The notes: a model not told the origin generated them from the sequence alone. DNA of 64,000 bases from Euglena gracilis (GCA_039621445.1 CP154954.1:45177847-45241846); one strand, 5' to 3'. Shown: positions 5,378-62,675, counted from the stretch's first letter. Numbers and translations are program-made.

Positions 5378-5919
5378 CCCCTCGCCGCATCAATGATGGG
5401 TGAATCGGGATAGAGGAAGGCATTTTGCCACCTACATCCCGCACAATCAATGACAATAATGATGAAGAGGGTTCATTACCCCCATGCAATAATAAAGGCG
5501 TTTCGCCTTTTGAGAATGACAAATGAGTCAAATTGCCTTCTTCTTGCTTGGGGGGTCGGGAATTGGAACTTGTTTCATTCAAACCGTTCCAATCCCCGCA
5601 ATCTTCATCACAATTGCTCAATGAACTCATCAACAAGTCATAATCAAATTTGGGGTTGGGGCTTGTGCTCTGCATCTTTTGAGATGGGTAAAAAGGCAAA
5701 AACCCAAAAATTCACACAAATAAGCAGAGAAACAGGGACCAGAAAGGTTGTATCGGCGATTACCGAACAGAGCCTTCTGAGACCTGTATCCTTGCTTAAA
5801 GGTTGGCTAGGGGCCAGGAACGGTACTTTCACCGTGTTTCACGGCTCAGTACGATCCTCACCACCAGTCAACCACAGAGTTTCTCTGTGTGGAACGTCTG
5901 TGTAGGATCGTTGCCTAAA

Positions 5920-10830: not shown

Positions 10831-13328
10831 CATGGGGGGTGCACAGTACCTCACCATCTCGAAGTGCGGAGCCCGAATGGTCTCGGACGCCCACGACCGA
10901 GGAAGGGGGAGGAAGGGACCAAGAGGGCGAAGCACAAGAAGATGGTGAGCCCAACCCCCCCACCCAAAAATCAGCAGAAAAAGAAAGACATCCCAACCAG
11001 AAAGGGGACCCCCAACCAAGCAACCCCAACCACCCACCCAGAAACACAAAGAGAGACAGCCATCCCCATCGAGGGGGGGGGGCCGCCAAGCAAACATGGG
11101 AGAGGGGGGGGCGGGGCCACGACGGTTCAGCGTCGCCAAGGTGTCGGAGGAGGCCCCATCATCGCCAACTCCGGCAACGAAGGCGCAGTAAGAAGCACCC
11201 CCCGCGCACGCACACCAGAACAGAACAGCCGGCAAGGAAAGCAGGACCTCACCATCTTCTTGTGCTTCGCCCTCTTGGTCCCTTCCTCCCCCTTCCTCTG
11301 TCGTGGGAGTCCGATTTTCGCCGAGTTGGCTGATTCCTAATTTGCCCTTCGACACCCAGAAGAAAGGAACTTCAAAATACCAAAATACCGCTCAAAATAC
11401 CCGTGGATGGGGTGTCCCAAGGGCTTCAAATTTGATCTCTGGACATTTCCTTTGATTTGGCTTCATTTTGGGGATATTTTGAAAATTGACATTTTTTTTG
11501 GCCGAAATGGCAGGGTCCAAAGGGGGGGGAGGCTTATCCAGGGGGGGCGGGCCGATCCTACCCAGTTTGACCCCTTCGCGCGTGAATAACTCGGGCCTGG
11601 CGGGGAATTGGGAGTCAAACCCAGGTGATTCGGAAACTTGAAATCCAGTCGCTCGCGACTGAAAAAAAAAATTCGGGAACAGGGTCGGGATCATGGTGGC
11701 AATCTGTCCGTTCTCCGGGTGGCCCCGACCTGGGGGGGGGGGGGGCGGGGGGGGGGGGGAGATGGGGAGGGTTTCGCCAGGGGTAAGCTTCGCTCTTATC
11801 TTTCACCCAAAAATATGCAAAAAATTAATTCAGAAATCGCTTGGTTTTCCTCTGCGGGGTGGCAACACCTTCCTTGAAATGAGCAAGTCAATTCGCCTCC
11901 AAGTCCCAAAATTGGTTGTGTGTGGAAAAAGAATACATCACCACGAGCCAGATTGAACCGAGGTTGCCAAGGTTGACTATTGAACACATCCGACCAATGC
12001 ATCCTGAAGAGATTGGAAATGGCTCCTTGGGGTTTCGTCGTGACACAGGGCACATGCAATACAGGTTGTTTGTTTAACACATATGTAAATAATTTGTTCA
12101 TTACATAAATAAATTATGTAACCTGTGGGGAGGGGGTCAGACCTCCTTGACCGGAGGGTGGGGAACCCATAAAAAACAGTTGTTATCAAGCCTTTTTCCA
12201 AGCTTCCAAGGTTGCACTTGTTCTGGGTGCTGAATGCACACAATTCCCCAGAGCCCACAAACCTGGTTTCCAGAACCCAACTCCCCATTCCTTGAGCCAG
12301 CTAAATTCATATAAAAAAAACACAAAAACAGAATGCAAAATGGTGGGGGGGGTGGAAACGTACATGGGCAAACCAGTGTCTTGGACATCTTTCTCAAAAC
12401 TTTTTGTCAAAAAACAAAAACCAACGGAAAAATGCCCACCACAAAGCGCGGTGCAAACTTGCAAAACGGCATGGCTTGCCCAGTTGCACACACTTCTATT
12501 CCACTATGCAGTTCGCAACTTCCAGACTGGCAGAAAAGCAACTCCGAAAAAAGTTTGCAAAGAAATTGAAAACCAAAATGTGCAAAAAAATGCAAAAAAT
12601 GCTCATTTTCAAGGTTCTGGATATGCCAAAATAAAATCAAGCAAATTTCATATTCAATATTGCATATTGCACATTGCATGAGCAACTTGCATATTTTATC
12701 CCCCCCCTCAGAAGTAAGCCCCCCAAAAATGGACCCCCAGCCCATTTTCAGCAAAATAAAAAAATAAAAAATAGACTCCCAAAAAATAATAATCTCTCAA
12801 TTGGGGAGGGGTGCACTTTTCTGAAATTCTTCAATTTAAACCGTTTTTCATGTGCTAAAATTGGCTTTTTTTTGAGACAATTCTATTTTGTTGCGAAAAA
12901 TCTATGCTTGTTTTGAGCGATTTTGCGTTTTTGGACCACAAAAAAGTTGGTTTTCGGCCAAAAAATTCAAAATCCAAAAAAGAACTCGACCCCCTTAAGA
13001 TTTTTTTGCAAAAGACCCAAAAAAAGACTTTTACCCAGGGTTGAGCAACCCAGAGCTGCCAGCAAACAAGACAGCAGGGGTCAGGGGATTTTTTAAGACC
13101 GGGGGGGGGGGGTGGGGGGCCCCCCCCCCACCCCCCCACCCACCCCCTGCCCCCCCCGGCCGGGGGGGGGGGGGGGTCCTGGGGGACCCACAAAAAAAGG
13201 CCGAAAAATCGCGAAAAGTGCTAAAAATAGCACTTTTTCGGCGCCAAAAAGTATATCCCACCCCCCTCCGGTCCGGCCGAGCCCCCTCCTGGGGGGGGGG
13301 GGGCTCGGCCGGACCCAGCCACCCTAAA

Positions 13329-13727
13329 CCCCCCCCTAATAAGTGCACGGGTGCGCGATTTTAAGGACGTAGTTTCGGACCCCAAGGGGTGCGCACTTAT
13401 TGGGGCAGTGCGCACTTTTTAGGGCAAAGCCAAAAATACTGACATTTCCCCCACTCTTTTTCAATTTTCCCCCAATTTTGTGATTTCAAGCTATGAGTCA
13501 AGTGATTATGTGTCAAATGTGTCAAATTTGGGCTCGGACAATAGAAATATTTGGTCTGAGAAGGACAGTTCTGAGAATTGTGCGTGCTTTCCGACCTGAG
13601 ATATGACAATGATTTCTCCTTTGGGGGGGTGCGCACTTTTTAGGGAGGTAGTTTCGGACCCTTGGGGGGTGCGCACTTATTAGGGCACTGCACACAATTA
13701 GGGCACTGCGCACTTATTAGGGGGGGG
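13329..13727. mobile_element. MITE with CCCCCCCTAATAAGTG TIR, nested
   Basis: ccccccctaataagtgc...gcacttattagggggg. Confidence 0.7.
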
Positions 13728-15100
13728 TCGCTGAGCTCTTATCTCTTTAGAGTAAGAGCGAAGCTTACCACCGGGGCGGTGGGGGGGGCGGGCCCCCCCC
13801 CCGCCCCCCCCCCCGCCCCCCCCCCTGGGTAGGTCTGGAAACCCCGGGATTATCGATGTGACTGGATTTCCGGGGCCCCAAAGTGCATAGCCTATAGGTT
13901 AGGGGACGATCCCTAGTACCTCCAGAGCCCTTGGGTTACCCGCAACTCTCCGCCAGTCCGGAGATATAGCCCGAGCAAAAAAGTTGTCTACCGTTTTTTT
14001 TTCCGGGGAAATTGCAGGGTCATTTTGGGGTCAAAAAATCGAAAATTTCAAAATATCTCGAAAACGCCGCGGAGTTGAGGAAACGTAATGAGGACGTCAC
14101 TCCACAACTTTGGGACGCCCGATCGATCGGTATGCGCGGTTTGGGCCAACTCCTCGCCTAGCCCGAGATATGGCCGTTTTGGGGTTTTGGGCCAGTTTTG
14201 CCAGCTTTGGCCATTTCGGGTCCGTTCAGGGCCCGAAACCGTAAATTGTCCGTATCTGGGGCTAGACGAGGAGTTGGAGCCCAAACCAGGGGGTCAATCA
14301 TTAGGTTTAGGGGGGGGGGGATGATCGTTTTTTGGGGTTCTTGGGGTCTGGTTGTGCGATTTTGGGCCAGTTTTTGGGTATTCGGGGACCCCACCGGGCG
14401 CCGTCAGGGCAGCTGGGCGAGGGGGGGGGGGTCGGGTGGCAGGTCGGGACCCAAATTTTTGAAAAAAGTTTTTTTCGCTCAAAAACACTTTTTTTCACTT
14501 CAGAACATCAAAAAAAGTGTTTTTGAGCGAAAAAAAAATTTCCGACCCGGACCCCCCCCCATGCCCCCCCCCTGGCTGGGGCCCGCCCCCTGGCCGGTGG
14601 ACTTAGCCATTTTTGGGTCAAAAAGTCGAAAAAATTCGAAAAAAAAAATTTTTGCCCAAAACCATGATTTTTGACCTCCCGGACCCGAAAAAAGTGATTT
14701 CGAGCCAAAAATGAGCGTTTTTCGACCCGCCAGCGCCCCGTTTTGGGCCGCCAACCCATTGACTTTGGGTCAAAACCGGATCAAAAAAGTCGAAAAAAAT
14801 CGAAAAAATTTTTTTGCCCCAAAACGATGTTTTTTGGCCTCCCGGAACCGGAAAGCCTGTGTTTGAGCCGAAAATGAGCGTTTTTCGACCCGCCAGCGCC
14901 CCTTTTTGGGCCACCAAACCATGGATTTTGGTCAAAACCGGTCAAAAAAGTCGAAAAAATGGAAAATTTTTTTGACCCCAAAACGATGTTTTTTGGCCTC
15001 CCTGACCCAGAAAAACTGTTTTTGAGCCGAAAATGATCGCTTTTCCCGGGCCGGGCCGGGGTGGACTCCCAAAGAGCTCAGCTCTACGTCACACCCTGGT
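13726..15100 (-). mobile_element. Solo monomer of the tandem-array element family
   Basis: Ends are the reverse complements of the two halves of the junction motif at 58786-58826; interior matches 58800-60600. Confidence 0.8.
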
Positions 15101-15166
15101 TACCCCCCTCCCCCCCCCCCGGGGTCCACGACTAAAAAAAAACCCTGGCAGGGGTGAGAAACCTGA

Positions 15167-15278
15167 TCAGCCTCGCTGCTTCAGAGTGATCTTGTCCCCA
15201 AGGCCCAAGGCAATCCCCTGGGTCTTGGAGCGGATGCGCACCAACCCTTCGATGCGTCCATCAGGGTGGCGTTCGATG
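15167..15278 (-). CDS. COPB1: beta-COP exon 26 (terminal)
   Basis: [36 protein letters not shown]. Confidence 0.95.
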
Positions 15279-18200
15279 CTGAGGCAGAGAAGAAGGGAGG
15301 AAATACACCTCGCCAACAAATCCAAGGCAGTGGCAGGGCCAAACAACTTTTGCAATCTGAACACAAACTGGGTAACTGGCACAGTTTGCTGTGTCCATTT
15401 GTCTGATGATGCAAGCACACACATGCACATACATGCACGCAACGACACAAATGGACAATGAGAGAGAGAGAGAGAGAGAGAGATTTCTGCAATTTCTCTG
15501 TGTCCTATGGAGACCTTCCTAATCGGACAACACACTTTGTTTGTTTGCTTTTTTCGTCCCCAGCACCTATTTCCCCCCCCCCCAGGAGAAATGGGGATAC
15601 CCACCGAATGGCATTTTTGCAAAGAGAATTCTGGCCGAAAAAAATCAGCGCCTTTGCAAGCTGGGAAGAGGGGGTAGATTCCCATCCACCACGATGGGGT
15701 CGTTTCCAGGACCCTTATTCAATGATGCCCTGGCCCCAACAGGCTTTCACTGTTTCATTGTTCAGCGGACCCCTCTGCCCCCGGGGAAAATCGGTTCTAC
15801 GTTTCTCCACACTGAAGGGGGGGGCACTGGCCTTCCTTGAAGGGTGCTGGCTGCAGGTGCCCCAAAATTGTATCTGGGCATTTTTGTGTCCCCACATTGC
15901 CTTGTTTGGGTCTCATTTTCCAGCCCCCCCCCCCCGGCAGGGATAGATGGGAAGCCTTGAGGGGGGGGGGGGGGGTCAGACTCCCTCCCAACACGGGGGC
16001 GGTCGGATCAGGCTGTGTATGGAGCTGAGCTCTTTACCTATCTGATGGTGAAAAGCAACCCGGCCCGGCCCGGCCCGGCCGGCGGCCCAGCCTAGCCTGG
16101 CCCAGCAGGCAGCCTGGTGGCCCAGCCAGCGGCCCAGTGGCCCGGCCCGACCCAGCCGGTGGCCTGGCGCCTGGCCCTGCCCAGCTGGCAGCCCGGCGGC
16201 CCGGCCAGGCCCGGCGGCACGGAACGGGCGCGTAGCTGGCCCTGGAGTTATATGCGGGGTGATAGAGGGTCCTCAAAGATTTATTTAAGGTCTCCAGTTG
16301 TTTCCTTCTATACCTCATCATTTTGGAGAAATTCTGAAATTTTCGATTTTTTGATCCCAAAATGGCCCTAAAATCGCCAAAACGGCTGTATTTGTGACCT
16401 TGGGGGCCAAAACAGGGTTTTAGAGGGCCGCCGAGGCATTATTTTAGGTCCCCAGTGGTTTCCTTTTGATTGGCCACCATTTTGGAAATATTTTGAAGTT
16501 TCGATTTTTTCACCCAGATGTGTGGAGCAAAACGCCCTTAAATTGACAATCACTTATGAAGAAATAAAAATGCGTAACATAAAATAAAATACATAAAAGA
16601 CCATTGGATAGGGCGTTTCAAGGGCTTTATTTTAGGTCTCCAGACATTTCCTTTGTTCCGAGATATTTTGGAAACATTGTTTTTTGGACCTCAAAACAGC
16701 CCCAGAAATGGGCCAAGATGGGTCGAAAAATGGCCATAACTCGGGCCACACGAAGAAGTTGGGGGGAAAAGTAACCCATGGTCGGATTGGGCATTCCAAG
16801 GGCTTCATTTTTTGGTCTCCGGGAAATTCCTTTGATTTTTGCTTTATTGTCCAGATATCTTGAAAAAATCGATTCTTCGACCAAAAAAACAGGGCTGTTT
16901 TGGGCCGCAAAAGTGCGCCGGAACACAGTGTCGGCGGCCAAAACGGCGAATGGGGGGCGATAGAGGGTCTCCGGGGGGGGGGGTACATTTCGTTTGGCGG
17001 ACACTTTTGGACATAATGGACATTTTCTCGAGATTTTTGAAAAAATCAATTCTTTTGACCAAAAATCTCACCCCGCAAAATGGCAGAGTCGTAACTGGGG
17101 GGGTGGCTAATCCTCCAGTGATCCAACCCTTGTCAGTTGAATAAATCTGGCCGGGCGGGGGGGTTGGGGATCCAGTCGCTTGCGACTGAATGAGAAAAAA
17201 TTCCTGGAACGGATGGTGATAATCCGCGGTTCTCATAACCTACCCAGGGGCGGTTCTCATAACCTAATTTTCCCTGGAGCTCCGCTCTTGCTCTAAAGAG
17301 ATAAAAGCTCAGCGCCCCCCCCCTCCTACCTCGAAACTGAAGGGGGCAGGGAAAATCATTGATTGTATGGCAAGGCCAAAATTGGTGGGAAATCCTGATT
17401 TTTGTCTGGAAAAAAAAACTTTCCAAAAATGTTCATTTTTTGAAAAAAAATTTAACACTTTTTTTGTGGAAACATCAAAAACAACAAAACATGTGCAATA
17501 TGCTCTAAAATGAGGGAAACGAAACATTTTTTTGCTCATTTTCCGGCGCAGCACCGGAAGAAAATTTTTGCTATTTTTGGAACCTGCCGAGGACGGGGGT
17601 GGGGATCTAGGCTCCCTCCCAACATCTAGGGGGGGGGGGGGATCCGAACCCCCCTGTCACAACCCCTACCACCCACCTCAAACCCAGAGGGTTGCACAGC
17701 ACTGTTTAACGGTCTGTGCCACAGCAATCAAGGATGAGGGATGGCACTGTGGCAGGGTCGTCTTCCCCTGGCAATGTCCCACCTGCCAGCCTGAACCCAC
17801 ATACAGCCTTGCAGTCCACGAGCACCACACTTTCATCCACATCCAAAAATGATTGGGTTCGGTGCCCTCCCACCGTTGGGGTTCCATACTTGGAGGGGGG
17901 ACACAGAAATGTAAAGCACAGAAGGTGTGGCAAAAAGGTCCCACCTGACATTGGCCAGGGCATCTTCCCCAAAAGAGCTCTTTGCGTAGAGGTTGGCCGA
18001 CAGGAAATCGCAATCTCCTTGGATGAAGTTGTCTGACGTGAGAGACCTGCACAGAAAAGGAGGCGGGGAGCCCCTTGTGGCAGCCAGGCACCTATAGTCA
18101 AGCCCAAAAATTTCCCCATTTTAGGCCATTTTAGGCCATTTTAGGCCATTTAAGGCCATTTAAGGCCATTTAAGGCCATTTTAGGCCATTTTAGGCCATT

Positions 18201-21200
18201 TTAGGCCATTTTAAGGTATAGGTGGGGGTTCTGAAAATCATAATTTTTCGTCATTTTTGTCCCAAAAACTGTATCATAACATGTGCAAACCTTCTCTTAT
18301 TCAGTAATAAGAAATGTACATACAAAAAAGCATGCAAAATTCATGAACAATGTATCAAAACCATGATCAACAAATCTTAATTCATACCCATAGAGGAATT
18401 CTGAACAGTAAGAAATTATGGCAGTGAAAATATTTCAAAAAAAAACGTTTGACAAATATTAAAAGTTTTTATTTGCGCAACCAAAAAGGCGCCCAGTTTT
18501 TTGTATTTTGTGAAATCTACGCCATTTCGCAAAAAGAAGCCATTTTTCTGAAAGATGATGCTGTTGCATGGTGAGGTTCAATTTGAGAGCCGAGCAAAGC
18601 TGAGAGCCTCTTCTCCGTGATTGTTTTCCCCTTTTGGGGAAACTTAATACTAAAAAAGGTTCATAAACAGGAGAGAATCTCATTCATAATTGTTTGTGGT
18701 TGTTTGGGTCACTTGATCAAATATAAGATTCAAATACGAAAAGAAGGTTGGGGACCATGGGGACTGATACTGATACTCACAATGAATTGCCACCTGTCTC
18801 AAAAATTTCGCCACTGTCTCAAAGTATGACTGCGATCTTCTCAAAAGCAATTGCCACTTGTCTCATTATCAGAAAAAAGCAGTGCCCATTAGGGTGGACA
18901 GTCAAAGAAAGTCATCCGACAGCCCCGTCAGGAGGGCCTACATTTTAGGCAAACCCTGGCCAACACATTGTACCCATGACGAGCATTATTCGGATCAGAC
19001 ATGGATGCAAGAGAAAGAGACGCTTATGAAACAGAAACTTGTCTTCCAAACACAACTGTCATGAGGGCATTCATTCTTGAGAAAAACGGCAATTGCTTTC
19101 AGAAAATTGGCAATTGTTTGGAGAAAACTGACAATTGTTTGGAGAAATTGGCAATTATTTAGAGATAATTGACCAATTACAATTGAGAAAATTGGCAGTT
19201 ATTTTGATTTCATTACATATACGCAACCAGCTGTAACAAAAGACACCGAAAGTAATTACCTGAATGGCATCAGTTGTTCACAAAAAAAATTGTTGTGCAA
19301 CAGAAATTTTCCCATTTTAGGCCATTTTAGGCCATTTTAGGCCATTTTAGGCCATTTTAGGCCATTTTAGGCCATTTTAGGGACCCCCACCTATAGGGGG
19401 TCAAAAAGTCATTTTAGGCCATTTTAGGCCATTTTAGGCCATTTTAGGCCATTTTAGGCCATTTTAGCTATAGGTGCCTGGTGGCAGCCAGACTGTTCCC
19501 CCACCCCAGCAGCGAATCAACCAGAAACCACAACAAGAAACAGGCCAAAATTTTCCTTCGGCATTGAAGGAATTTTTCCTTGCGGGGTGCTGTGGTGGAT
19601 GAGGTGGGGTGGGGGCAGGGCAGAACGGGAAGGCCTGGGGGGATCCACCCCCCCCCCCACCCACCACAGCATTTTCACCAATTTTGGGAAAATGGGGGAT
19701 TGCCGGGGGAATTTTTTGAATTTTTTTTTTGAAAAATGATCCCAAAATACATGATTTTCCGATAGAAAACTACACAAAAAAACACAAAAAAACCTCAAAA
19801 TTTTCAGGTTTGAAAATTGGTAATCTTTAGGAGGGGGGTGAAAAAAAAAACGAAAATCAAAAAATTTGGACCAAATTTGGCACAATCAAATTTAACTGAA
19901 ATTTTTTCCCTTGGCTTTTTTTGGATTTTCAATAGCATTTTTTGCTTCAAAAACCTCAAAATCAAAATCTTGAGGAAACGTTGAATTTTTGGAAGGTGTG
20001 TGAAAAAAAACGGGGTTTGAAAATGAGGTTTTGGGGGGTTTGGGGGGGACCTCCTATATGCGTTAAAAATACGCCCGGCGCCGAAGGCGCGGGAAAAAAT
20101 TTTGGGGTCCAAAAAATGCTGCCACCAGAACAACGGGAAGAGGTGGGGGGGTGTTCAGCCCCCACCCACCACCCTGGCTGTTTGGCATTCCCGTTCTGCC
20201 CTGAGTGGGGGTCGACCCCACCCCTGCCTTCCCGCACATGCCGTACAGGCCTTCCCGTGCAGCCCTGCCTGGGCTTTGGGGGTCTGTGTCAGGTCGCCAC
20301 TTAAGTCAAAATGAACCCCTTCCCCCCCCCCCCCCCCCCGGTGGGGGAGGGCAGCCAACAGCCGTTTTTCCAGCCAGCAGCCTTTTCCAGCCTCAGAGCC
20401 CCATAGACAAGTTTTAATTACTTTGCAGCCGCCCGAAGGGCACCTGGACAGTGACAGATTTTTCGCGTTTGGAGGTGCAAAAATGGGCCAAAAATGGCCA
20501 AAAAAGGGTCAGATTTGGGCCAGCTCAAATTTTGGGTCAAAAAATGTTTTGCATAATTGGCAGTTTTTGGGCATTTTTGGAGTTTCGATTTTTTGGTACC
20601 CAGATCAACCCAGGTCGGGCCAAGTTCCAGCTGGGGGACCTGTTCTGGGACATCCTGTTCTGGATTATTGTTGTGTCCCCAAGCAAGGTCCAATTTCCTG
20701 CCTAAAAAGCAGTGCCCCAGAAAACACAAGAAAGCCTGGTGGGGGGGGGGGCGTCAGACCCCACCCACCAGGATTGGGGTGGGGAGTCGACCCCCCCCCA
20801 AAAAATCCCAGAAATCCCAATTTGGGGATTTCCATGCAGCCCTGAGCCCAAAGTATTGAACTTACTCCATATCGGGGAGGGAGGGGGGAGGAAACAAAAA
20901 AACATCCACATGCGCAACCACAATTCCATCAAACCCATTGTCACTGCCCAAAACGATTCCAAGGGTCCAGCAGGATGGAAGGTAACAATGATGGGAAACC
21001 TGGAGCAAGGGCCGAATGAGCACCGGGATCTGGAGGACTCAAACAACAGAGTCCATTTGGGGGCTGCAATTTGAGAAAATAATATGCAAAATCCAAAAAA
21101 AATATAAAAAAGACGATAGAAATATAGAACACGGTGGAAAATAAAATACACACAATACTTGAAGATGTAAAATAACCAAAACTGCGTATCCCACATTCTC

Positions 21201-39200: not shown

Positions 39201-42200
39201 GCGTGCATAGAGACGCATAAACCAATTAAAGTTATTAAACTAATTGGACTGGTGATTAAATTTATTTATGCACAGAAATGACTCGTCGAACTTGCACACC
39301 ATCCTGGCGACATCTCCGGTGGCATCGGTGGCCTCTGCTCCCTTCCTCTGTCGGTTGGTGGTGTCCTCACCAGCTGCCTGGGAAGCAAGAAAAAACGGTT
39401 AAAAAGATTGGGTTTCAGATGTTGGGCTTCTGAAAACTGAACGCAGCTTCAAAAAACGCCGAGATTGAGAGGGGCCATTTTTCACTTAAGGGGGAAATGA
39501 AAAATGGCACCTCCCAGCTAGGGCGTCCCTCCCGGGCGCCCCCAACTCCTGGGGGGTCCAGCTCAGAGGCTGGGAAGTTTGGGCTACTCCCCCCATAGGG
39601 GTCCCCCACCCAAAAAAAATCCAAACTGCAAAAATGCCACAACAACTGCCAATTATGCAAAAAAAATCAATTTTTTTTGGCCTTATACTTGTCCTGACAG
39701 CTCAAACTGAGTTCATTTTGCCCATTTTGCACCGGGTCTGGGGCAGAGGTTTTCTTAAGGACCCCAGGGGAGGAGGGGTCCCACGGGTCAGCTGGAGAAA
39801 AGTGCTGGCTGGACCCCCCTGGGGGGATGGGGATACACAGGGTATTAAATGACCAGGGGAGTCTGGACCCCCCTCCCCCTGTGCAAAAAAAATTCCGGCG
39901 CAAAGGGCTGATAAAAAATTTGCCCTGAAAAAAATTTGGGGCCTTAAAATGCCCCAAAAATGCGTTTTTGCGCATTTTTTATGGAAAATCGGTCAAAACA
40001 CACCAAATCCTTTTATTTTTCATCAATTGTTTTGGGTTTCCAGGGGGGCCCCAGACCCCCTCGGTACGAAGGGGGAGGAGGAGGGAGTCTGCCCCCCCCC
40101 TTCAACCCCCCTTCGCAAAACCACCGCTCAATACTCTGGGGGTCGAGGGGGGGGGTCCGGCCGGTCGGCTGGCAGCTGGACCCGGCCAAAAACAGGCCAA
40201 ATAAAAGCCCGAATCCAGCCTGGCTGGCATTTTTCAGCCAAAAATTTGAGGTGAAAACCAAAAACTATTCACATTTTCTTCCCGCCATCCCCTGTCATGT
40301 CGCAAACACGCATGGGACCATTTTCCGCCGCACAGGAAATGGTCCCCTCTTTTCAAAAATTTTGACACTGTGCACTGAAAAAAAGTTTCGACCCAAGTTT
40401 ATTTCAGCTGACCCCCACCCCCGGGAGGGGTCTGCAGCACGGCTGGGAGCTGCTGGCTGGAAAAAAGTGATGCCTGGCTAGATCCCCCCACAGGGGGCAG
40501 GGTCCCCTCCGGCTTGAGAAAACCCTGCTCCGGGGCTGGGAAAAAGCCGCTGCCTGGGAAAAAAGCTGCTGGCTGGCTGGACCCCCCCCCGGAGATGTGA
40601 TGCCCTTCGGATGTGATGCCCTGAGCGACGCCCTGCTCTCAGCACGAACAAATGAGCTCGGAAAGATAAAAACCCATCACCCCACGACTGCATGTGGCAT
40701 CTGACATCGACAGCAAACGTACCTTTTCAATAGGAACCAACGGAAAAGAGCCAATAGCCGTCTTGATAGCACTCATGGCGGACATCACCTGTGGCCAGAG
40801 GAAACAGCTGGATGCACACATACACACACACACACACACATATGTAGCTTGTCAGCTGTATGCAGCCCTGATCTGTGCTATGCACAAAACTGTAAATGCT
40901 TTTGGCAAACGACAAAAAAATTCCAAAAAAGTGAAAGAAATCTGGAATCAGCACTATGATGCACCCCCCCCCAATCACTGGAGTTTTGGGGGGGTCATGT
41001 TTGTGCACCAGAGAGGTCGAAAAAGGGGCAGTAACACAATGATGCAAAAAAATTTTTGGATTGTGGAGTACAAACCGTTTAAAGATTTTCTGGGGGCTTT
41101 TGGGAACCAGGAGTTGGGTTTTTTTTTGCTGGAGGCCTTCAGAGATCCAACAAGCATTAACAAAATGGTCATGCTTCATGGTGAGGCGCTTGAAATGCTG
41201 CCAGAAAAACCCAGAAGAATATTCATATATAACCGAGTTCAGGCGAGGGAAAACCTCTTTCGAGACATGATAAATTGCTTTGACACACGTTTCCCATAAT
41301 TCACAGAATGTTTCGGCAATGCAAACAGAAAAGGAAACAATAACCCTCTGGAACAAAAGATTTAATGTAAATTTGGGGGGATTCGACACTAGGGGAGGTA
41401 CTTGGTTGGGAGAAAAACTCTGGCTGCTTCAAATTCTCTCAGATTTCTTTCATTTAGTGAAATTCTGTTGAACTATAACAGAAAAGTTGACACAAAAAAT
41501 GGTCACAAACTTTTTAAAAAAAATGGCCACCCATAAGTCACCTGTCGGTCCGGTCCAGAGAGGGGGGTTTGAGGGGGGGTTGGTGTGCTCCGAGGCACAC
41601 ACCACGCAGGCGCACGCAGGCACGCACACACGCACACATATGAGGCTCATGAACAAACCTCATCTGCAGACTTGCAGTAGGTGCCCAGAACCCACAGCAA
41701 GATGCGAAGCACCCTAGGCGAAGAAATACTGCCAAAGACATCAATCAGCTTGGCCAATATCTGCACAGGATGGCACGAGGGAAGGCGCATTGACCCCATC
41801 ATATGCTTGTGCTTACCGACCGCGGGGGGAGGGGGGTGGGTGGGTGCTATAGGGTGCCTGCCCATAGCAGCAAACCCCCCGGGGGGGGGGGGGTCCGGGG
41901 GACCCAGAAAATTTTAATTGAAAATGACCTTTTCCGGGCCCCCGGCGCCAAAGGCGCCGGGGTCGGAGGGGGGTGCCTGCTATGGGCAGACACCCCCAAA
42001 AACCCGACCCCCGGGGGGGGGGGGGTCGGATGGGTGCCACAGGGTGCCTGCCCCTAGCACCCCCCCCCCGTGGGGTAGGCACCCGACTAAGCACAAGCCT
42101 GGACCCTATTCCCCCCTGAACACTGGCTCCCATATGGCTAACTCTGTAGGGGCAGAGGCAAAAAAAAAAAAAGATTCGTCCCCTAACTTTGCAGGGAGGC

Positions 42201-45200
42201 AAAATTGCTTGGGAGGGGTAACAGGGTTCGGATTTAAAGCCCCCTGAATAATAACCCCTTTGGTTTTTACCAAAATCCAAAATCCTTCCAATCCCAGGGC
42301 TTTAACTAACTATTTGGCTGACCCTCCCCAAAAAAACAATAATGGAATTGATTTTCCACAAAAAAAAAACAATAATGGAATTGATTTTCCACTTTCCCTG
42401 AAATTAATTTGCATCAAATGTTGTTTTTTGCCGATAATTTTCATTTCTTCAATGCTTCTGTTCATTGGACAACAAAACCAGGTATCACTTTTAAGGCACT
42501 TTTAAAAAAAATTAAAAAAAACTTGTAAAAAATCTTATTTTTTTGCCAAAATGCCCGAAAAAAACTGAAAAAACCCTTTAAACCCCCCCAAAAACTATAT
42601 TTAATATTATATTATAGCATAGTGTAGTATAGTATAGTATAGTATGGTATATTATATTATATTATATTATATTAAAAAATATTTAAATTGTAGAAATCTT
42701 TTCCAGAACAAATTCCAAACAAAGAAGAGGTCACAAAATCTTGGCAAAAACAAGCCAACACCAAGGGGAGAAAAATGCTTTGTGGCATTGATGGAGCACT
42801 GTCCATCTGCCAGTAACGTTTTATTAACCTGGACCGACTATGGTTCGATGCCCAGATAGCTATTTAACTGCCCTTCCTAAAAAACCTTTTAAAAAAAGCC
42901 TTGGAAACATTGAAAATTTTGAAAACTTTCGCCTAAAAACATAATCCTTGAACTCAAGATTGTGGCATTTCAAATGACTTTTTTTGTTTACCACCTCGTA
43001 ATTTCCCAGAAAGGTGCATGATTTTTTTCACGTGACTCCTGGGTGCAAAATTATTTGGACCTTTTACGACTTTTCCCCTGCAACGGCCCTGTTGATCACT
43101 CTCACGAAGATGTGAACCCCCAAATAACTTTTAACTGTCCTAAATATTTGTGTCCACATAACATTTTGCAGGAGCTCGTACCCTCACCCCCCTGTTTGTC
43201 CCCCCCCCTAATTGGCTAACTGGGGGGTCCTTAAGGGAGGTCCATTAGCCAATTAGGGGGGGGGGGGTTAGCCCAATTGGCCAATGGACGTTCCCTTGGC
43301 CAACTTTGGCCAATTTCGGCAAGGGGTCAGAAAACCTCCAAAAACGTCCGTTTCGAAAATGTTAAAATTTGCCGGATAAGAAAAAGTCATGACCAATCCA
43401 AAAATGCACAAAAATCGACCAATTTTGCACACGTCAAAAATTATGGGGTCGGGGTCCTCGAGCCCCCCCCCTAATTGTCCCCCCCCCTAATTGGCTAATT
43501 GGGGGTCTGAAGGAGCCCGGCCATTAGCAAAATAGGGGGGGGGGGGGTGAGGGTAATTCTCACCCCACATTTCCAACACCTTTTCTGCAACAACTCTCTT
43601 CGTTCCAAAATGATTGGGCATCTTTGTGGTCACCCAGAGGAGTCTTTGTGCGCTAGCTGGGTATTAAATTTAGAGGGGATGGGGGATGGGGTGGTTACAG
43701 ACCCCCTCCCCGGGGGGGGGGGGGGGGACCCCCCAGGTAAAAAAAAAAACGGCCCAAAGCGCCCAGAAAAAAGTTTTGGTGGGGCTTCAAAAAGCCTAAA
43801 ATAGCGTTTTCAGGATTTTTTCTCACCAGATTGTCGAAAACAGGTGATAAAAGCATAAACCCCCTCGGGCCAACCAACCAAACCCCCCCCCCCAGGCACT
43901 CCGGGGATGATTGTTTCGGCCGCAAACCACCCAAAAAGCTGATTTTTTTGGCAATTGTTTTTTTTCACTGACCATTATCAAAAATGCCATTTTTGACCAA
44001 ATTTGCCGAAAATTGTCAACTTGGGGGGTTTGGGGGTCATTTGGGGGAGTTGGATTTTCACCAACTAAAATTTTCATTCCTTGAATTTTGAACCCCCAAC
44101 TTATGTCCCCCCATTTGGCTGAACAACCAAATCAGATCACTTGAACTCCAAGAGGTTTATAAATGGGGTAGGGGGTATAAGTCTGCCAGCGCAAAGCGCC
44201 GGGGAACAAAAGCTTGGTTCTACGGGGGGGGGGGGGGGGCTGGCCCTGGGGGGTCTGGACCCCCTCACCTCCCCCTGAACAAAACCAACTTAAAACTCTG
44301 GGGGTAAGGAGGGCGAAAAAGGTAAACACGAAGAACGACAAAGAACACCAAACGTTCCTCACAAGCAAGGGAAATGGGGTACAAAGACGCAATTTTGATA
44401 CACGGAATACCTCATCTCGAAGTTGAGGCTGTCGAAGCAGAATCTCGCGAATGAAGAGCATGACGTCCACGGCAGACGGGCCCACGTCGATCAGGTAATC
44501 AGACAAAACGGGAACAATCAGTCCTGTGAGCAAGCCAATTGGAACAAAGCTACTTCGGCATTGCACTTGACAGATCTTTGTCACGAGCCTATGTTTCCAG
44601 AGTGCCTCAGGTCTGTGAAAATGGCTGCTGAGAAAAAGAATTTTAGTCTGGCAAATGTGAGTTCTGACCAGAATGCCCACTTGACATTTGGCAACATCAG
44701 CTTTGTTTGCACAAAGAAACGCCGACAGAGCCTTATAGGGGGCATCCTAGGTGAAGCATACAAAAAAAAATCCAATTTCAATTCCAATTCCAATCTTCCA
44801 AATCCAAATCCATCTTCAAAGCTCTTAGGGGGAAACTCTTAGACTTTTTGAAAGTGTTTTGATCGAAGACAAGATAAATGTTGCGAATTTTTTCACCCCA
44901 ATGTGTGCCTTTACCTGTGAGGAATCCAAAATATTTTCATGGTGCTCTGTCCTGTTCAATTTTGAAAGCCTCCTTCCTGCAAGTTTGGGAATGATCTAGA
45001 ACAGGACTCTTCGACCACAAGCAGTTGAGCAGGAAGGTTGATTCAAGCTCCTCACATGCAGCCCCCCCCCTCTGGGCTTACCAAAAGGCCATACCCCAAA
45101 GTAAAATAGATTTTGAAGAAAGGTTAGGGAGTGGACTCAGTCACTCAAACAATTTTACAAAAAAAATGTGTTATACAATTATTGTATTCATTCCTTTCTA

Positions 45201-48200
45201 TTGTGGATTCATTTACACTCATCATACGTTCATTCTGCAGAGAGATGGTCACAGAGGCATCAAAAAAAATGCACTGCCAGTGGCAAAATCCAACGTTTGA
45301 AATCACCCACTAGCTACCGACCAGGCCTAGTCGGCCGACCAATTGGGTAATCGACCGACCACCCACTACCTCCCCAGTCTACCGTCTGGGTCCTCCTTGC
45401 CTTGCACAGGCGTCTTCGACAGAACAGCCAAAAAAAAGAGGATATTACCCAAATTTTTTTGCTAACTGACCTGCGACATGGGGATGCTTCACCGTACATT
45501 GGTGGATGCTGCGGACCAAGAGCTGGCGGTACTCATTGCTGGCCTGCTTGTCCACCATGGCCGTATCCTCCTGCACAAGGGATAGAAGCTTCATGTCAAC
45601 ATAAAAAGGTACGTTATTCACCAAAATGACCCCCACAGAGTTGCAGTGAGCAACTTTGGAATCAACTCCAAAAAAAACACAACACACAACAATTGCATTT
45701 CTTTACACTCTACACACCGAAGCCCAATGCTGGAAATATGCCAAACTTCCAAGACAGAGAAACGGCAAAACTTTTGACATCATTCAATTAAACAATTGCA
45801 CACTTACAGCGCCTGTATGGCAAAATCACCTGACGTTAAAGGAGATTGAGAGTGGGAACCCTGCCTCCAAATGATATCCCCCAGCCAGCTTCCCAAATAC
45901 CATGCCCCCCTGAGCTATTCCCGTCCCTGGGAACCCTTTATGGCCCAATGGGAACAGTGCGGGGGCACCTAGGCCCCCCAGTGATCTTTTCCCACACACT
46001 GACCTCGGACAGCCCAAAAGGGGTCATTTTCGGCAACTTTTTTGTTGGATGTTTGCAAAAAAAATGGTAAATTTCAAGCACATTTGCCAAAAAGCAATTT
46101 TTGAAAAGTCCAGAAAACATCGATTTTTGGCCATGTTTTTGCATGTCCTTCATTAAAAAAAAAAATGCAATGCCAGTTCCCCCCCAGTGGGAATAGCTCG
46201 GGGGGGGGCCCTAATATACACATATATACATATATATGTATATATTATTTTGGGGTGCATTATTGGGCAGATTATGAATATGTATTTGTCACTGCACATA
46301 ATAAATTCACATTGCAAATGTCCCTCTGGAAAAAAAAAGTCATGTGAAATTGGAGAAATTATTTTCCAACATAAATTGCTCCAAATTTGGTTCAACAGGC
46401 GGGAGGAAACAACTCCTGGGGTGGGGACCTGCTGAATCCCCCCCCAAAAAACATCCCCAGCAAAATAGAACCAGCTCATTCAGCAGCCAAATGTGTTACG
46501 CAAAATGCCACTTTGGTGAACCTTCTAATTGCACATCGCCACTTCATCACTTTACCACTTCGCCACTTCGGACCACAGCAGCTTTTCACACCTGCATCCG
46601 CAGCACCTCCTTCTTCAAGAACTGCACCGCCTTCTCCACGTTCTGGTTGGTGGTCAAATCCAGAGACAGGTCCAGGATCCTCCGTCTCAGGTCCATGTTG
46701 GGGGAGGCCAGAGTCCGCAACAAATCAGTCAGAAGCTCACACAAGATGTCAGGGAACCTGCAGCAGGGTTGGACCATGTGGAAAATATGCAAGAGGCAAC
46801 TCAAAATTGGTTTCCACCATTACTTTAAGGTGGCGTGAAAGGCGGTATTCAAACCACTGTGGATTCTTCCTGGTTATTAAAATTAGAGATTGGGTTGGGT
46901 GTTCACAAATTTTATCCACAGTGGAAAATATCGGCTGTCTCCAACAAAAAGCAGCTTTTTTAAATTCAAAAAAAGAGGGCACTTTGCCTAATCTGGGAAG
47001 AAAATTGTCCCAAGCACCAAGGAATCTTCTGGGATTTGGGGTAATTCCAATAAAACTGGTGCAAATGTTTGCACTGGATATGTTGAGAAATAGCTCAAGC
47101 ATGAGGAGGTGACTACATTGTAGCATCAACCACAAAGTCACATGAACACACCTCTTTTTTATGGCTTCCAAACGATCGATAACAATGAGCTTCACGTTAT
47201 TGTCAGCATGGGTTGTCAAAAGCTTCACGAAGGTGTGGGCAGCCTCTCGGATTGCAGTCCGGGATGACGCCAGGGATTGCAGCGTTGATGCGCACTGGAA
47301 AAGCACTGCCGCGTGGCGGGAAGAGAGCAGATTGGGGCTGGGAAGAGGTGTGCGATGCCAGGTGGGATGATTCAATGCAAGCACTCACTGCAACGTCTTC
47401 CCAGTCGAATATCACTGACAAGTACTTGGCCTTCTCAGCAGGGCTGGTCTTGCAGAGATGACGCAGTAAATCCACAAGTGCCAACTGGAAAGGCTCCCCA
47501 GCAAGGTCAATGTCGACATCAATTGCCTGCAAAGAAAAAGAACCAAAGTCAATAAAGAGCCGACCCTTGGATATTTGAACAAATTGAGCTCTGAATCTCT
47601 GAGACAAGAGCAGAGGAGAAGGGTCACACCTTTCGCAAATAACGAACAGCGCGCTCCTGGGCACAGTTGAAAAGCATCAAGAAAGAGTTTCGCTTTGTGG
47701 TGACATCTGGGGCAGGCAATATCAGGAAAAAAGGCCAAAATGCAGAAATCGATTTGCCACATCATTGTCAAAAAAAGGCATGTTCGGGACGTTAACACCT
47801 TCCTGTTCTTTTCTATCAACAAAAATGAAAAGAAAATTTTTAAAGTTCAAACATGAAGCCAATTTCAAATGTGCCCAAAGGTGTCCTGTCACCTCAATAA
47901 TCCCCTGAACATGACTCCACAAGGAATATTCAAATCGGTCAACATTGATAAGAATGGCAATAACTCGACCAAAGAAACTGCCTGGCAGGACTCCTTGTCC
48001 AAGGAGGCTTCAACAAGCTTTGGACAAGCCTTTGCTTGAGGAACCCCCAGGGGCCCACTGGATTGGGATTTTCGCTCGTTTAAAAAAAGCTCACCCCCGA
48101 CTGGGAAAAACTTCCTACAGCGTTTCACAGGGATGACTACCCAGCTGTAGTCCACACCTCCGGGGAAAGGCCAGGAAAGGAGGGGGCATGCTTGTGCTTA

Positions 48201-51200
48201 CCGACCGGGGGGGGGGGGGTGCTATAGGGTGCCTGCCCCTGGCAGGCGCCCTCCCCCCCCCCCGGGGGGGCTGGGGGGACCCAGAAAATTTTCATTGAAA
48301 ATGGCCTTTTCCGGGCCGGGGTGGGAGGGAGGTGCCTGCTATGGGCAGGCACCCCCAAAAACCCTGCCCCCCCCCCCCCGGGGGTCGGATGGGTGCCTGC
48401 CCCTGGCACCCCCCCATGGGGTAGGCACCCGGCTAAGCACAAGCCTGGGAGGGGGAATTGTCGCAGGAGGATATGCACTAAAAGGCCCCCCAAAATATAC
48501 GAAAGAACATGCAGGAATGTGCGCTAAATATGCAGGAAAATATGCGGAAATATGTGATTTTTCCAAAATCGGGCCACGTTTGGACATGTTCAGGTGACCC
48601 AACTGGCAATTCATTTCAAGCCATTGGGCATTTTGGGGTGATATTAGCTCACAACCGGCCACAATATTTCGCATATTTTTGTGCATATTTAGCTCGTATT
48701 TTGGCGGGTTGCAGGAATTTCCTACTACACATTTTGCCCATTCTCGCATATTTTCCGCATATTTTCCACAGCTTATTTTTATTGGGACCGTCACAATCAT
48801 TTCGGGCCTTTTGGTCATTTTTGCGGTCGTTTTCAGCATTGGGATGATTTTGCGATGGAAAATAGCCCAAATGACCAAATGCCACAGTGGCTCAGAATGG
48901 CCCAAAATGGACCAAAACTGGCAAAAAAAAAAGGTACTTGTCTGTTAGTCGATCCACGGCAAAACAGGTCGATCCACACCTATTTTTGGCCTACTTTGGG
49001 TCACTGATGTACTTTGGGTCATTGATGGACAGGGAAAGCACAAAACAGGGTCAGAAGATACGGCTGGTGTCGGCACAGGGTATAGAGAGTCAGGGTTAGG
49101 GTTTAGGGTTAGGGTTCTGGGTTTGAGTTTGGGTTTAGGGTTGGGTTAAGGTTTAGGTAACCCTAACCAACCCAAACCCAAAAACCTAACCCTAATCCTA
49201 AACCCTGACCCTAACGCTTACTCTCTAGACACTGTGCCAACACCAGCCGTATCTTCTGACTCTCTAGACACTGTGCCGACACAACAGCCGTGTATTCTGA
49301 CCCTGTTTTGTGCTTTCCCCGTCCATCAGTGACCCAAAGTAGACCAAAAATAGGGTTAGGGTTAGGGTTAGGGTTAGGGTTAGGGTCAGGGTTAGGGCCA
49401 CGTAGCCCTAACCTAGCCCTGGCCCTAACCTTAAACCTAACGCTGACCCCTAACTCTAACCCTGATGCTAGCCCTAAAACGAACCCTAACTATCTAGACC
49501 CTGTGCCAACACCAGCCGTATCTTCTGACCCTTTTTTTGTGCTTTCCCTGTCCATCAGTGACCGAAAATAGGCCAAAAATACGGTTCAGGATAGGGTTAG
49601 GGTTAGGGTCACGAAGCCCTAACCTAGCCCCAGCCCTAACCCTAACCCTGACCCTGACCCTAACCCTAAACCCAACCCTAACTCTCTAGACCCTGTGCCG
49701 ACACAACAGCCGTATCTTCTGACCCTTTTTTGTGCTTTCCCTGTCCATCAGTGACCCAAAGTAGGCAAAAAAATAGGTGTGGATCGACTAACAGACTTGA
49801 TGCACTGCCGTGGATCGACTAACAGACAAGTACCAAAAAAAATTGGCCAAAAATGCCCCAAAATGAAAACAAATGGCCGAAAATGGTTAAAAGAAGTTCA
49901 ATATGCACTTTTTTGCCAAATAAGTGAAATATGCGCTAAATATGCAAAAATGCACAAAATCTGGCACAAAATATGCGCTCCACATATCCCCCCCCCTCCG
50001 GTTGTCGGACCGGACCCTCCCCATCAACCCAGGATGGGGGTTGGGGTCTACCCCCACCATCGGGAATTCCCACACAGCCCTGGGGGGGGGGGGACTGCAA
50101 ATCCTGAAGTTAAGGCCTGGTTCTGGAGCATCCGGGAACAAATGAGGAAAGCGCTGATACACAGCCATCAAACAAAATCAATAAGTTCCAGAGGAGGGAG
50201 AGGATGGCCGTAAACGTACCAACAGCATGAAGTAATGCCAGAAAACCATGCAGGGAGAAAAGGAGGGGTAACATTTCGAGGAAACAGAAATGGTTGAACC
50301 AAAATGACAGTGGGGGGGGGATGACACAAATGGGTGGTTGGTGAAGTGGCATTCATCTTTGCCGTGAAGGGGAAATGGATGAATTTGTTTCTTGCTTTGA
50401 CTTTTGTTTCATTTCAAAAGTAGGTGAATCAATTTGATTTTGAAACCCACACATGTCACTGAGGTCATTACATCATCAATGTCCCGGGAATTTTTGTGGC
50501 GTTTGGGTCAAAAGCAAATGAACAATGAACACAAGGAACTCCTTGCATACAGCACTGCGTTGCGCCGCACATAAGAGTGCCTGAGCAGGATGGCAGAAAA
50601 AAACAACACGCTGATAAAATCTGAGACTCCGGGGTGGGGGAAACGATGCCAAGAGGGTACCCCCCCCCTATGACTCCGGGGGAGGGGGGATCTGGGGACC
50701 CACTTTTGGGGCCACGGACACACGCAATTTTTCGAAAAATATGGCCAAAAATGGCCAAACCCCACCTCCAGCAGGGGATCCACAAAACCCTTGGGGATGT
50801 GCTCAGAGAGTTCTCCAGAGCATGAAAATTTTTGGGAGAAATTGCCAGTTGCCAAGATAAATGCAGTGTTTTGGGAGGTATTGCAAACGTGCCATATCCT
50901 TCAAGGGAATGAAAAAATGGGTGATGCACCCTGCCAATTTTTTGTTTGAAATCTGGGCTCAGCCACAATTTGTGTGTAGAAATTTTTTGAAACTTTTTGG
51001 CAAATTTTCATGATGAAGGACAGGCAAACTCCAGGACATTTGTGTGTGTCAGATGATTAGAGGGATTCGTCATCATCGGACAGTGCCAAATGGTCCGATT
51101 CTGATTTTTCTGACCATTCTTCTGATTGAACTATCCAAAAATGGCCAAAAATGACCATTTTCGGATATAAAATGGCAAATTTGGGTGCCGCGCGCTCTGC

Positions 51201-61764: not shown

Positions 61765-62675
61765 GGGTCATGATGGCCATCATTGGGCATGATGGCCATC
61801 ATTGGGCATAATGGCCATTCGGGGTCATGATGGCCATCCGGGGTCATGATGGCCATCCGGGGTCATGATGGCCATCATTGGTCATGATGGCCATCCGGGG
61901 TCATGATGGCCATCCGGGGTCATGATGGCCATCCGGGGTCATGATGGCCATCCGGGGTCATGATGGCCATCCGGGGTCATGATGGCCATCATTGGTCATG
62001 ATGGCCATCATTGGTCATAATGGCCATCCGGGGTCATGATGGCCATCATTGGTCATGATGGCCATTCGGGGTCATGATGGCCATCATTGGTCATGATGGC
62101 CATCCGGGGTCATGATGGCCATCCGGGGTCATGATGGCCATCCGGGGTCATGATGGCCATCCGGGGTCATGATGGCCATCATTGGTCATGATGGCCATCC
62201 GGGGATGGCCGTCATTGGTCATAATGGCCATTCGGGGTCATGATGGCCATCCGGGGTCATGATGGCCATCCGGGGTCATGATGGCCATCATTGGTCATGA
62301 TGGCCATTCGGGGTCATGATGGCCATCATTGGTCATGATGGCCATCCGGGGTCATGATGGCCATCCGGGGTCATGATGGCCATCATTGGTCATGATGGCC
62401 ATCCGGGGTCATGATGGCCATCCGGGGTCATGATGGCCATCCGGGGTCATGATGGCCATCCGGGGTCATGATGGCCATCCGGGGTCATGATGGCCATCCG
62501 GGGTCATGATGGCCATCCGGGGTCATGATGGCCATCCGGGGTCATGATGGCCATCATTGGTCATGATGGCCATCCGGGGTCATGATGGCCATCCGGGGTC
62601 ATGATAGCCATCATCTTGGTCATGATGGCCATCATTGGGCATGACGGCCGCCATCCGGGGTCATGATGGCCATCC
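61765..62675 (+). repeat. 19-bp minisatellite (CCATC-CGGGG/ATTGG-TCATGATGG)n
   Basis: Over 40 tandem units with two interspersed variants. Confidence 0.95.

Follow-up and report, generated by a model that had tools for sequence, protein, structure and literature searches.

We analyzed a 64,000-nt stretch of the Euglena gracilis genome (GCA_039621445.1, CP154954.1:45177847-45241846; hereafter, the window, with positions counted from its first letter), which carries the gene for coatomer beta (COPB) together with several groups of transposons that begin with CAG, end with CTG and are flanked by 8-bp target site duplications (TSDs). In most of the nonconventional introns of the same gene, a CAG-like motif is preceded by 3 nt and a complementary CTG-like motif is followed by 5 nt, and 3 + 5 equals the length of the duplication. 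We regard it as rather probable that CAG...CTG transposon insertions are pre-fitted for nonconventional splicing and are a source of introns such as NC3 (48020..50122, minus strand), a 2103-nt intron of COPB with the ends AAC/CAGGCCTT...AAGGCTTG/TCCAA (here and below, slashes separate the 3-nt and 5-nt spacers from the helix). A transposon-to-intron system of this kind had been proposed in an initial annotation of the window, and this interpretation as a whole is partly supported, with the geometry, the sufficiency of the splicing signals as judged from the literature, and one fossil intron in its favor.

In the mechanism that we consider, the window carries several non-autonomous cut-and-paste families with terminal inverted repeats (TIRs) of 13-17 nt, CAG at the start, CTG at the end and 8-bp TSDs. 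Nonconventional splicing, by the published rule, recognizes a paired CAG/CTG helix and cuts 3 nt upstream and 5 nt downstream of it, and a CAG...CTG element inserted in a transcribed exon would already possess these cis-signals. Such an element, with its 13-17-nt TIR and 8-bp TSD, would meet the splicing rule by construction, and therefore removal would take the element and one TSD: along with the element, the upstream copy would lose its last 3 nt and the downstream copy its first 5 nt, leaving one intact 8-mer and restoring the original mRNA. Insertions of this type may become fixed as nonconventional introns and subsequently decay, NC3 being a putative fossil.

The arithmetic of the initial annotation, 3 + 5 = 8, is correct and agrees with the splicing code that Nomura et al. 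(2025) defined by knock-ins in E. gracilis, 5'-N3CDG-/-CH'GN5-6 with R as the first base of the downstream exon (PMC12501133). According to the available text of that study, the donor spacer is strictly 3 nt, whereas the acceptor spacer is 5 nt but may also be 6 nt; splicing requires the CAG/CTG motif as well as adjacent pairing over about 12 nt; and five fully synthetic 50-bp introns that obey the code, placed in a foreign exon, were spliced out. The knock-in assay showed a preference for a purine as the first base of the exon: of the two intron contexts, T was functional in one, and C was not functional in either (PMC12501133). The same source reports that the code is present in 61.2% of nonconventional introns and that 69.1% of the nonconventional introns of E. 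agilis are "slidable" through direct repeats at their junctions and were set aside in the analysis.

The four CAG/CAT...CTG elements with perfect 8-bp TSDs that had been listed in the initial annotation are all borne out by reading the sequence. The first of these, E1 (13082-15147; 13074..15155 with TSDs), is a 2066-bp CAG...CTG element with a perfect 8-bp TSD, GCAGGGGT, at 13074-13081 and 15148-15155. It starts 19 nt past the COPB stop codon, hence presumably in the 3' untranslated region (UTR), and is the only young insertion here within presumed mature-transcript sequence. E2 (18085-19480; 18077..19488 with TSDs) is 1396 bp long, with the TSD GTGGCAGC and a perfect 13-nt TIR, CAGGCACCTATAG, and is located in GT-AG intron 22; just inside both of its termini lie subterminal arrays of the 10-bp unit CCATTTTAGG (18116-18213 and 19312-19467). 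Subterminal repeats of this kind serve other cut-and-paste elements as transposase-binding sites. E3 (31133-31376; 31125..31384 with TSDs), a 244-bp MITE (miniature inverted-repeat transposable element) of the E1 family with the TSD CCCCGGGG, resides in GT-AG intron 15, and E4 (48187-48447; 48179..48455 with TSDs), a 261-bp CAT...CTG MITE with the TSD GGAGGGGG, is nested in NC3. Over the first 20 nt, the TIRs of these four elements match at 14-15 positions; in the CAG...CTG elements, the TIR length is 13-17 nt. A further CAG...CTG element absent from the initial list, E5 (29655-30947; 29647..30955 with TSDs), also in GT-AG intron 15, spans 1293 bp and has the TIR CAGGGCGGTCC(T/A)TA, matching at 13/14 positions, and the TSD GAACTGAC.

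Older family copies have decayed flanks. The TSD remnant matches at 6/8 positions in E4c (23006..23403), a 398-bp MITE in a GT-AG intron with a TIR of 16/20, which belongs to the reference family for NC3; at 4/8, by hand count, in E4d (26183..26567), a 385-bp member of the E4c family (69% identity) that lies inside intron NC7; and at 3/8 in E4b (41802-42101), an older relative of E4.

To assess how often such footprints arise by chance, the window was scanned for every CAG...CTG pair that has a spacing of 80-6000 nt and the same 8 nt on both flanks, with a TIR cut-off of at least 11/14. The real sequence contains 15 such pairs, four of which pass the TIR cut-off, and these four are E1, E2, E3 and E5 (the CAT-ended E4 falls outside the scan). 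Dinucleotide shuffling (200 replicates) produced an average of 2.04 pairs (maximum 6), or 0.005 (maximum 1) with the TIR cut-off. Among the 103 CAG...CTG TIR pairs in the real window, the direct repeat in the flanks is 0-3 nt long in 100 and exactly 8 nt long in three, with none of 4-7 or 9-12 nt. The 8-bp footprint is real and specific, given the shuffle control and the restriction of the flank repeats to either 0-3 or exactly 8 nt.

The host gene was delineated starting from a minus-strand open reading frame (ORF; 25408-26193) that matches the Pfam family Coatamer_beta_C and has a longer relative, P0001, the 945-aa coatomer-beta product of a Euglena longa transcript in EukProt (the only member of its protein cluster). 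A tblastn search of the window showed that minus-strand exons from 52667 to 15170 are colinear with P0001, with 85-100% identity in the exon cores of most high-scoring segment pairs and lower values in the short or intron-extended ones. This fits nuclear DNA of a Euglena that stands very close to E. longa. All splice junctions are inferred from colinearity with this sister-species protein, each junction being solved against it. The COPB gene (15167..52667, minus strand; stop codon 15169..15167) consists of 26 exons and 25 introns. A GT-AG register is possible in 18 introns, and in the remaining seven (NC1-NC7), no protein-compatible register with GT/GC-AG borders exists; the earlier count of six nonconventional coding introns thus has to be replaced by seven. 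A peptide search revealed two micro-exons of 32 nt each, one (47988-48019) flanked by two nonconventional introns, NC3 and NC4, and the other (50549-50580) flanked by one GT-AG and one nonconventional intron.

The rule that the initial annotation had formulated for these introns, 3 nt before CAG and 5 nt after CTG, stands in a relaxed form for five of the seven: a CAR...YTG helix at +4..+6 / -8..-6, in a protein-compatible register, is present in NC1-NC4 and NC6, but NC5 and NC7 lack the motif. In these five introns, the spacers add up to 8 whichever register is chosen, and the length removed therefore exceeds the helix-to-helix span by 8. The literal CAG...CTG occurs only in NC1 (51846..52466, minus strand; 621 nt; AGC/CAGGCT...AGCCTG/GTGTT) and NC4 (47708..47987, minus strand; 280 nt; TGC/CAGGCAGT...ATTGCCTG/CCCCA), both of which match the published CDG/CH'G motif exactly. 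NC3 has CAG...TTG, and CAA...TTG is found in NC2 (50174..50548, minus strand; 375 nt; ATG/CAAGGAGTTCC...GGAACTTATTG/ATTTT) and NC6 (24287..25850, minus strand; 1564 nt; ACC/CAAGGCA...TGCCTTG/GGATC). The shortest intron of the set, NC5 (47334..47406, minus strand; 73 nt; GAC/TGGGAAGA...TCTTCCCA/GCCCC), can be read as TGG...CCA with 3/5 spacers or as CTG...CAG with 2/4 spacers, its helix being one pair longer outward. The non-GT-AG intron NC7 (26146..26790, minus strand; 645 nt), with a junction ambiguous by 1-4 nt at the protein level, fits the 3/5 rule weakly: its outer helix has 3 bp, while spacers of 3/8 would give one of 8 bp.

An uninterrupted helix of at least 6 bp at +4/-6 is present in five of the seven non-GT-AG introns (NC1 and NC3-NC6; NC2 and NC7 have 3 bp only) and in no GT-AG intron, the longest among these 18 being 4 bp. 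In the 3/5 register, the downstream exon begins with a purine in all seven cases. The predicted duplex energies of the intron ends (RNAduplex) range from -11.7 to -25.6 kcal/mol in the seven nonconventional introns, compared to a mean of -10.2 in the 18 GT-AG introns, with some overlap; the ends of the transposable elements, with -15.9 to -33.7 kcal/mol, pair at least as strongly as those of the nonconventional introns. Fresh CAG...CTG insertions may, we infer, be spliced. The initial annotation had further held that removal would be scarless in either orientation. Under the 3/5 rule, the first exon base after removal is position 6 of the TSD in the transcript orientation; on the plus strand, this base is a purine in all five perfect TSDs, but in the orientation of the gene, in only one of the five.

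Although the initial annotation maintained that no coding intron keeps a recognizable TSD, NC3, which sits at the PE/LV codon junction of COPB, retains a remnant, whereas the other six introns are at the chance level. The 8 nt before and after the NC3 helix, TCCAGAAC and TCCAAAGC, are identical at 6/8 positions (binomial p of about 0.004, or about 0.03 after seven tests), and both mismatches fall in the spliced-out copies. Beyond CAG, the NC3 termini match the TIRs of E4c and E4d at 10/14 and 11/14 positions, scores reached at frequencies of 0.011 and 0.003 by the window's 2004 CAG sites in general; because the two ends are inverted repeats of one another, they do not count as independent. Alignments of 70-nt ends of NC3 with those of E4c and E4d gave z scores of 5.4-8.1 for the best pairings, and blastn-short aligned positions 1-45 of the NC3 5' end, in register, with 23403..23359, the right end of E4c (E = 7.6e-4).

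The least biased test employed an nhmmer profile trained only on the four E4c and E4d termini and searched against both strands of the window. The best non-training match was 48025-48070(+), with E = 0.013, and the third-best was 50119-50088(-), with E = 0.57, which is weak on its own. Both belong to NC3, begin at model position 1, exactly at the helix ends 50119 and 48025, and point inward. Given the 6/8 TSD and the in-register TIR homology to E4c and E4d, NC3 appears, on good evidence, to have begun as a member of a MITE family with free copies 22-25 kb away. The nesting of two younger elements with perfect TSDs, E4 and E6b (see below), inside NC3 fits its being an older host element. A comparison of introns with MITE families, in the direction of a check suggested in the initial annotation, linked the termini of NC3, within this one gene, to two free copies, and linked no other intron to a family. 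The termini of NC1, NC2, NC4 and NC6 were also compared with MITE TIRs; the best scores were 7-10/14, with background frequencies of 0.011-0.30, and homology was not accepted.

In the initial annotation, the elements were described as hAT-like. The hAT superfamily is characterized by 8-bp TSDs, YARNG-type TIR termini and the target consensus nTnnnnAn. The TSD length (perfect in E1-E5) and the termini, CAGGG or CAGGC (CATGC at the left end of E4), fit this description, but the target preference does not, with T at position 2 in one of the five TSDs and A at position 7 in one of the five, a small sample. A Pfam search of 40 ORFs of the window detected no transposase domain, only sub-threshold chance matches and a CCHC zinc knuckle in one 1263-aa ORF (see below), and all elements in the window are non-autonomous. 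Judged by TSD length and termini only, their transposase would be of the hAT type; this label is unproven because no transposase domain was found and 8-bp-TSD Merlin elements also exist in E. gracilis.

Two elements of the window that are putative Merlin-like MITEs share the termini GGTAC...GTACC and TIRs identical at 20/20 of the positions compared: E6 (51967-52416; 51959..52424 with TSDs), 450 bp long, with the TSD ACCATTGC, nested in NC1, and its relative E6b (48933-49834), with the perfect 8-bp TSD AAAAAAAA, nested in NC3. The available description of Merlin specifies TIRs of at least 24 nt starting with GG and TSDs of 8-9 bp, and reports two Merlin families with 8-bp TSDs in E. gracilis (PMC8101967). 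E6 and E6b resemble these E. gracilis elements in their GG...CC termini, long perfect TIRs and 8-bp TSDs; their termini fall outside the CAG/CTG splicing motif, and their transposase is absent in the window.

Several observations weigh against a derivation of nonconventional introns from CAG...CTG insertions. All results come from one gene, with junctions placed by a sister-species protein. A TSD-like signal is found in only one of the seven non-GT-AG introns, and the other six match at 13/48 positions, as expected by chance. Literal CAG...CTG ends are confined to two of the seven, and NC2, NC5, NC6 and NC7 are outside the published CDG/CH'G motif. Searching the window with whole introns (blastn) yielded no whole-length homology between introns and MITEs, only the nested copies, and the 40 window ORFs lack a transposase domain. 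With regard to splicing of the elements themselves, the pyrimidine that four of the five perfect-TSD elements would leave as the first exon base in the gene orientation (T in the case of E1) is disfavored in the published assay, and the E4/E4b family, with CAT or TAT at one end, fails the CDG motif on either strand. Finally, a published 8-nt junction repeat, in a newly gained gapC intron, was ascribed by its discoverers to double-strand-break repair (PMC4770533).

Part of this evidence would be expected if the match of the two numbers were a coincidence, an alternative that we deem unlikely, under which 8-bp-TSD transposons have nothing to do with the 3 + 5 rule and just fill long introns, and nonconventional introns arise otherwise, for example, by conversion of conventional introns or from unrelated hairpin-forming DNA. 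Transposons often have CAG termini and 8-bp TSDs, neither the TSD signal nor family homology is seen in six of the seven non-GT-AG introns, and the perfect-TSD elements are all located within introns or UTR, none of them in coding sequence. Their absence from coding sequence, however, says little because coding sequence occupies about 2.8 of the 37.5 kb of the gene, so that only about 0.5 of the seven young insertions would be expected there. Coincidence also leaves unaccounted for the ends of NC3, which are the top and the third non-training profile matches to a MITE family, in register, and come with a 6/8 TSD, as well as the 8-nt junction repeats of the published new intron (PMC4770533).

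We consider quite improbable the possibility that the introns are filler DNA captured at staggered double-strand breaks, with junction repeats as repair footprints and the MITEs a separate matter. Break repair is the explanation that Milanowski et al. (2016) proposed for the gapC intron with 8-nt repeats (PMC4770533), and reportedly 84.4% of the introns of E. agilis, counting conventional ones too, have flanking direct repeats (PMC12501133). It predicts footprints but gives no reason for exactly 8 nt or for flanking CAG...CTG inverted repeats, whereas in the window the flank repeats fall into two length classes, 0-3 nt and exactly 8 nt, and TIR families are common to unrelated loci. A very improbable scenario, in our assessment, is the reverse direction, in which nonconventional introns are the mobile unit, propagated through RNA circles or by a dedicated endonuclease, and the intronic and UTR "MITEs" are moved introns. 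The available accounts state that nonconventional introns are released as full-length circles (PMC11282704) and that a "transposition-related" excision mechanism has been raised by earlier authors (PMC3935182); the failure to find a transposase in the 40 window ORFs is compatible with this scenario as well. However, an RNA circle would carry its own N3 + N5 (8 nt) rather than duplicate a new target, and each element in the window is flanked by a different 8-mer that matches on both sides; the subterminal repeats and TIR families are, moreover, typical of DDE cut-and-paste elements.

Thus, insertion of CAG...CTG transposons that meet the splicing rule from the outset is the reading that we prefer for NC3, and MITE insertion may, by extension, be the main source of nonconventional introns. 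A broader version, to which we would give somewhat less than even odds, is that the 3/5 ruler and the 8-bp stagger with which one CAG...CTG superfamily cuts are fitted to each other, with splicing excising insertions from RNA throughout the genome, so that those in exons are neutral from birth. If so, the predominance of nonconventional introns in Euglena would be explained by this co-adaptation and not by a slow drift of introns, and "slidability" over as many as 8 nt at a junction could serve to date an intron.

How the nonconventional introns of euglenids arise and by what mechanism they are removed are questions that have stood open for decades. Here, the general MITE hypothesis is turned into concrete, checkable predictions, with named CAG...CTG families that leave 8-bp footprints beside the introns; the exact 3 + 5 = 8 match would explain scarless removal, and one coding intron keeps both the footprint and the family ends. 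If true genome-wide, this relationship would link the splicing rule to the cut geometry of a transposase, would make intron gain datable through decay of the 8-nt repeat, and would explain why the published analysis set aside most introns as "slidable".

Several components of this picture are already in print, so that the novelty implied in the initial annotation was overstated, even though it did acknowledge that a transposable element origin had been suggested before: the MITE origin, the 8-nt repeats, the TIR/TSD labels and the tolerance idea were all published between 2014 and 2025. In the available text, Milanowski et al. (2014) proposed MITE-like elements as a source of nonconventional introns, at a time when no euglenid transposons were known (PMC3935182). 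A newly acquired gapC intron that Milanowski et al. (2016) reported from a single strain of E. agilis has direct repeats of eight nucleotides at its junctions (PMC4770533); a 2024 review labels CAG/CTG "TIR" and the junction repeats "TSD" (PMC11282704); and Nomura et al. (2025) suggest that the splicing machinery mitigates transposon insertions (PMC12501133). Within the accessible parts of the Euglena literature searched, we found no explicit statement that N3 + N5 is an 8-bp TSD (the published supplements may already hold the 8-nt signal), no description of free CAG...CTG elements with 8-bp TSDs, and no intron assigned to such a family. The additions to the published hypothesis are the explicit 8 = 3 + 5 link, the free MITE copies and the fossil intron NC3; the result is a concrete instance and a sharpening of that hypothesis, not a new kind of system.

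Some further features of the window deserve mention. Its base composition is about 50% G+C, with abundant G/C homopolymer runs. The interior of E1 contains a 163-bp tandem repeat (14620-15045) that recurs at about 57-64 kb, and positions 644-2019 of this element resemble repeat arrays upstream of COPB (80-90% identity, reverse orientation); the interior may represent a larger related element or captured satellite DNA. A solitary left terminus of the E1/E3 type (27289-27361; 80% over 71 nt) and another solitary terminus (39750-39787) picked up by the E4c/E4d profile (E = 0.15) both lie in GT-AG introns and probably represent copies that have decayed or been truncated. In metagenome scans, neither the E1/E3 terminus nor a 30-nt stretch at the COPB 3' end had any matches. 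GT-AG intron 13 of COPB includes a near-perfect long inverted repeat (36995-37432), a hairpin-forming palindrome, in which the apparent "TSDs" are palindromic 8-mers that are merely part of the inverted repeat. Outside the gene, a long tandem array with a 19-bp period, the unit of which contains CGGGGTCAT, extends from 61829 to 62593. An uninterrupted 1263-aa ORF (1598-5389, minus strand) shows matches to a CCHC zinc knuckle and to coiled-coil-like sequences; it has a single relative in the protein collection (1308 aa, 35% identical) and yielded no intron information, and this ORF may be a lineage-specific gene or repeat-encoded. A second ORF (553 aa; 1-1659, minus strand) overlaps its end in another frame.

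In their organization, the nonconventional introns of COPB are like the known euglenid ones, with borders other than GT-AG, a CAR...YTG helix at +4..+6 / -8..-6 in five of the seven, a downstream exon that starts with a purine, and GT-AG introns in the same gene; they differ from the published cases in that free copies with perfect 8-bp TSDs accompany the introns and a MITE family can be linked to one of them. Non-autonomous hAT elements of the Ac/Ds type have 8-bp TSDs, short imperfect TIRs, CAG-type termini and subterminal repeats, and the window elements share all these traits, the subterminal repeats being those of E2; unlike in hAT elements proper, no hAT transposase or dimerization domain is seen in the 40 ORFs scanned. 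Splicing is known to take Ds out of maize transcripts (Giroux 1994, as cited in PMC3935182). Cryptic GT/AG sites are used there, whereas removal in Euglena would be a non-spliceosomal, helix-measured cut. A parallel in outcome may be drawn with the introners of Micromonas, Aureococcus, Amoebophrya, Polarella and Fritillaria, which are likewise inserted transposons that either bring splicing signals with them or generate these on insertion and in which a direct repeat overlaps the exon/intron boundaries, so that splicing removes the element and one repeat. The introners of Amoebophrya, as described in the accessible text, have inverted repeats of 8-20 nt and direct repeats of 3-5 nt (PMC7789003). 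Removal of introners is ascribed to the spliceosome, canonical or relaxed, whereas the Euglena elements would be measured by a fixed 3/5 ruler around a helix, with an 8-nt repeat; and unlike introners, with their many near-identical intron copies, the case in view here is a single gene in which NC3 shares its termini with two free copies.

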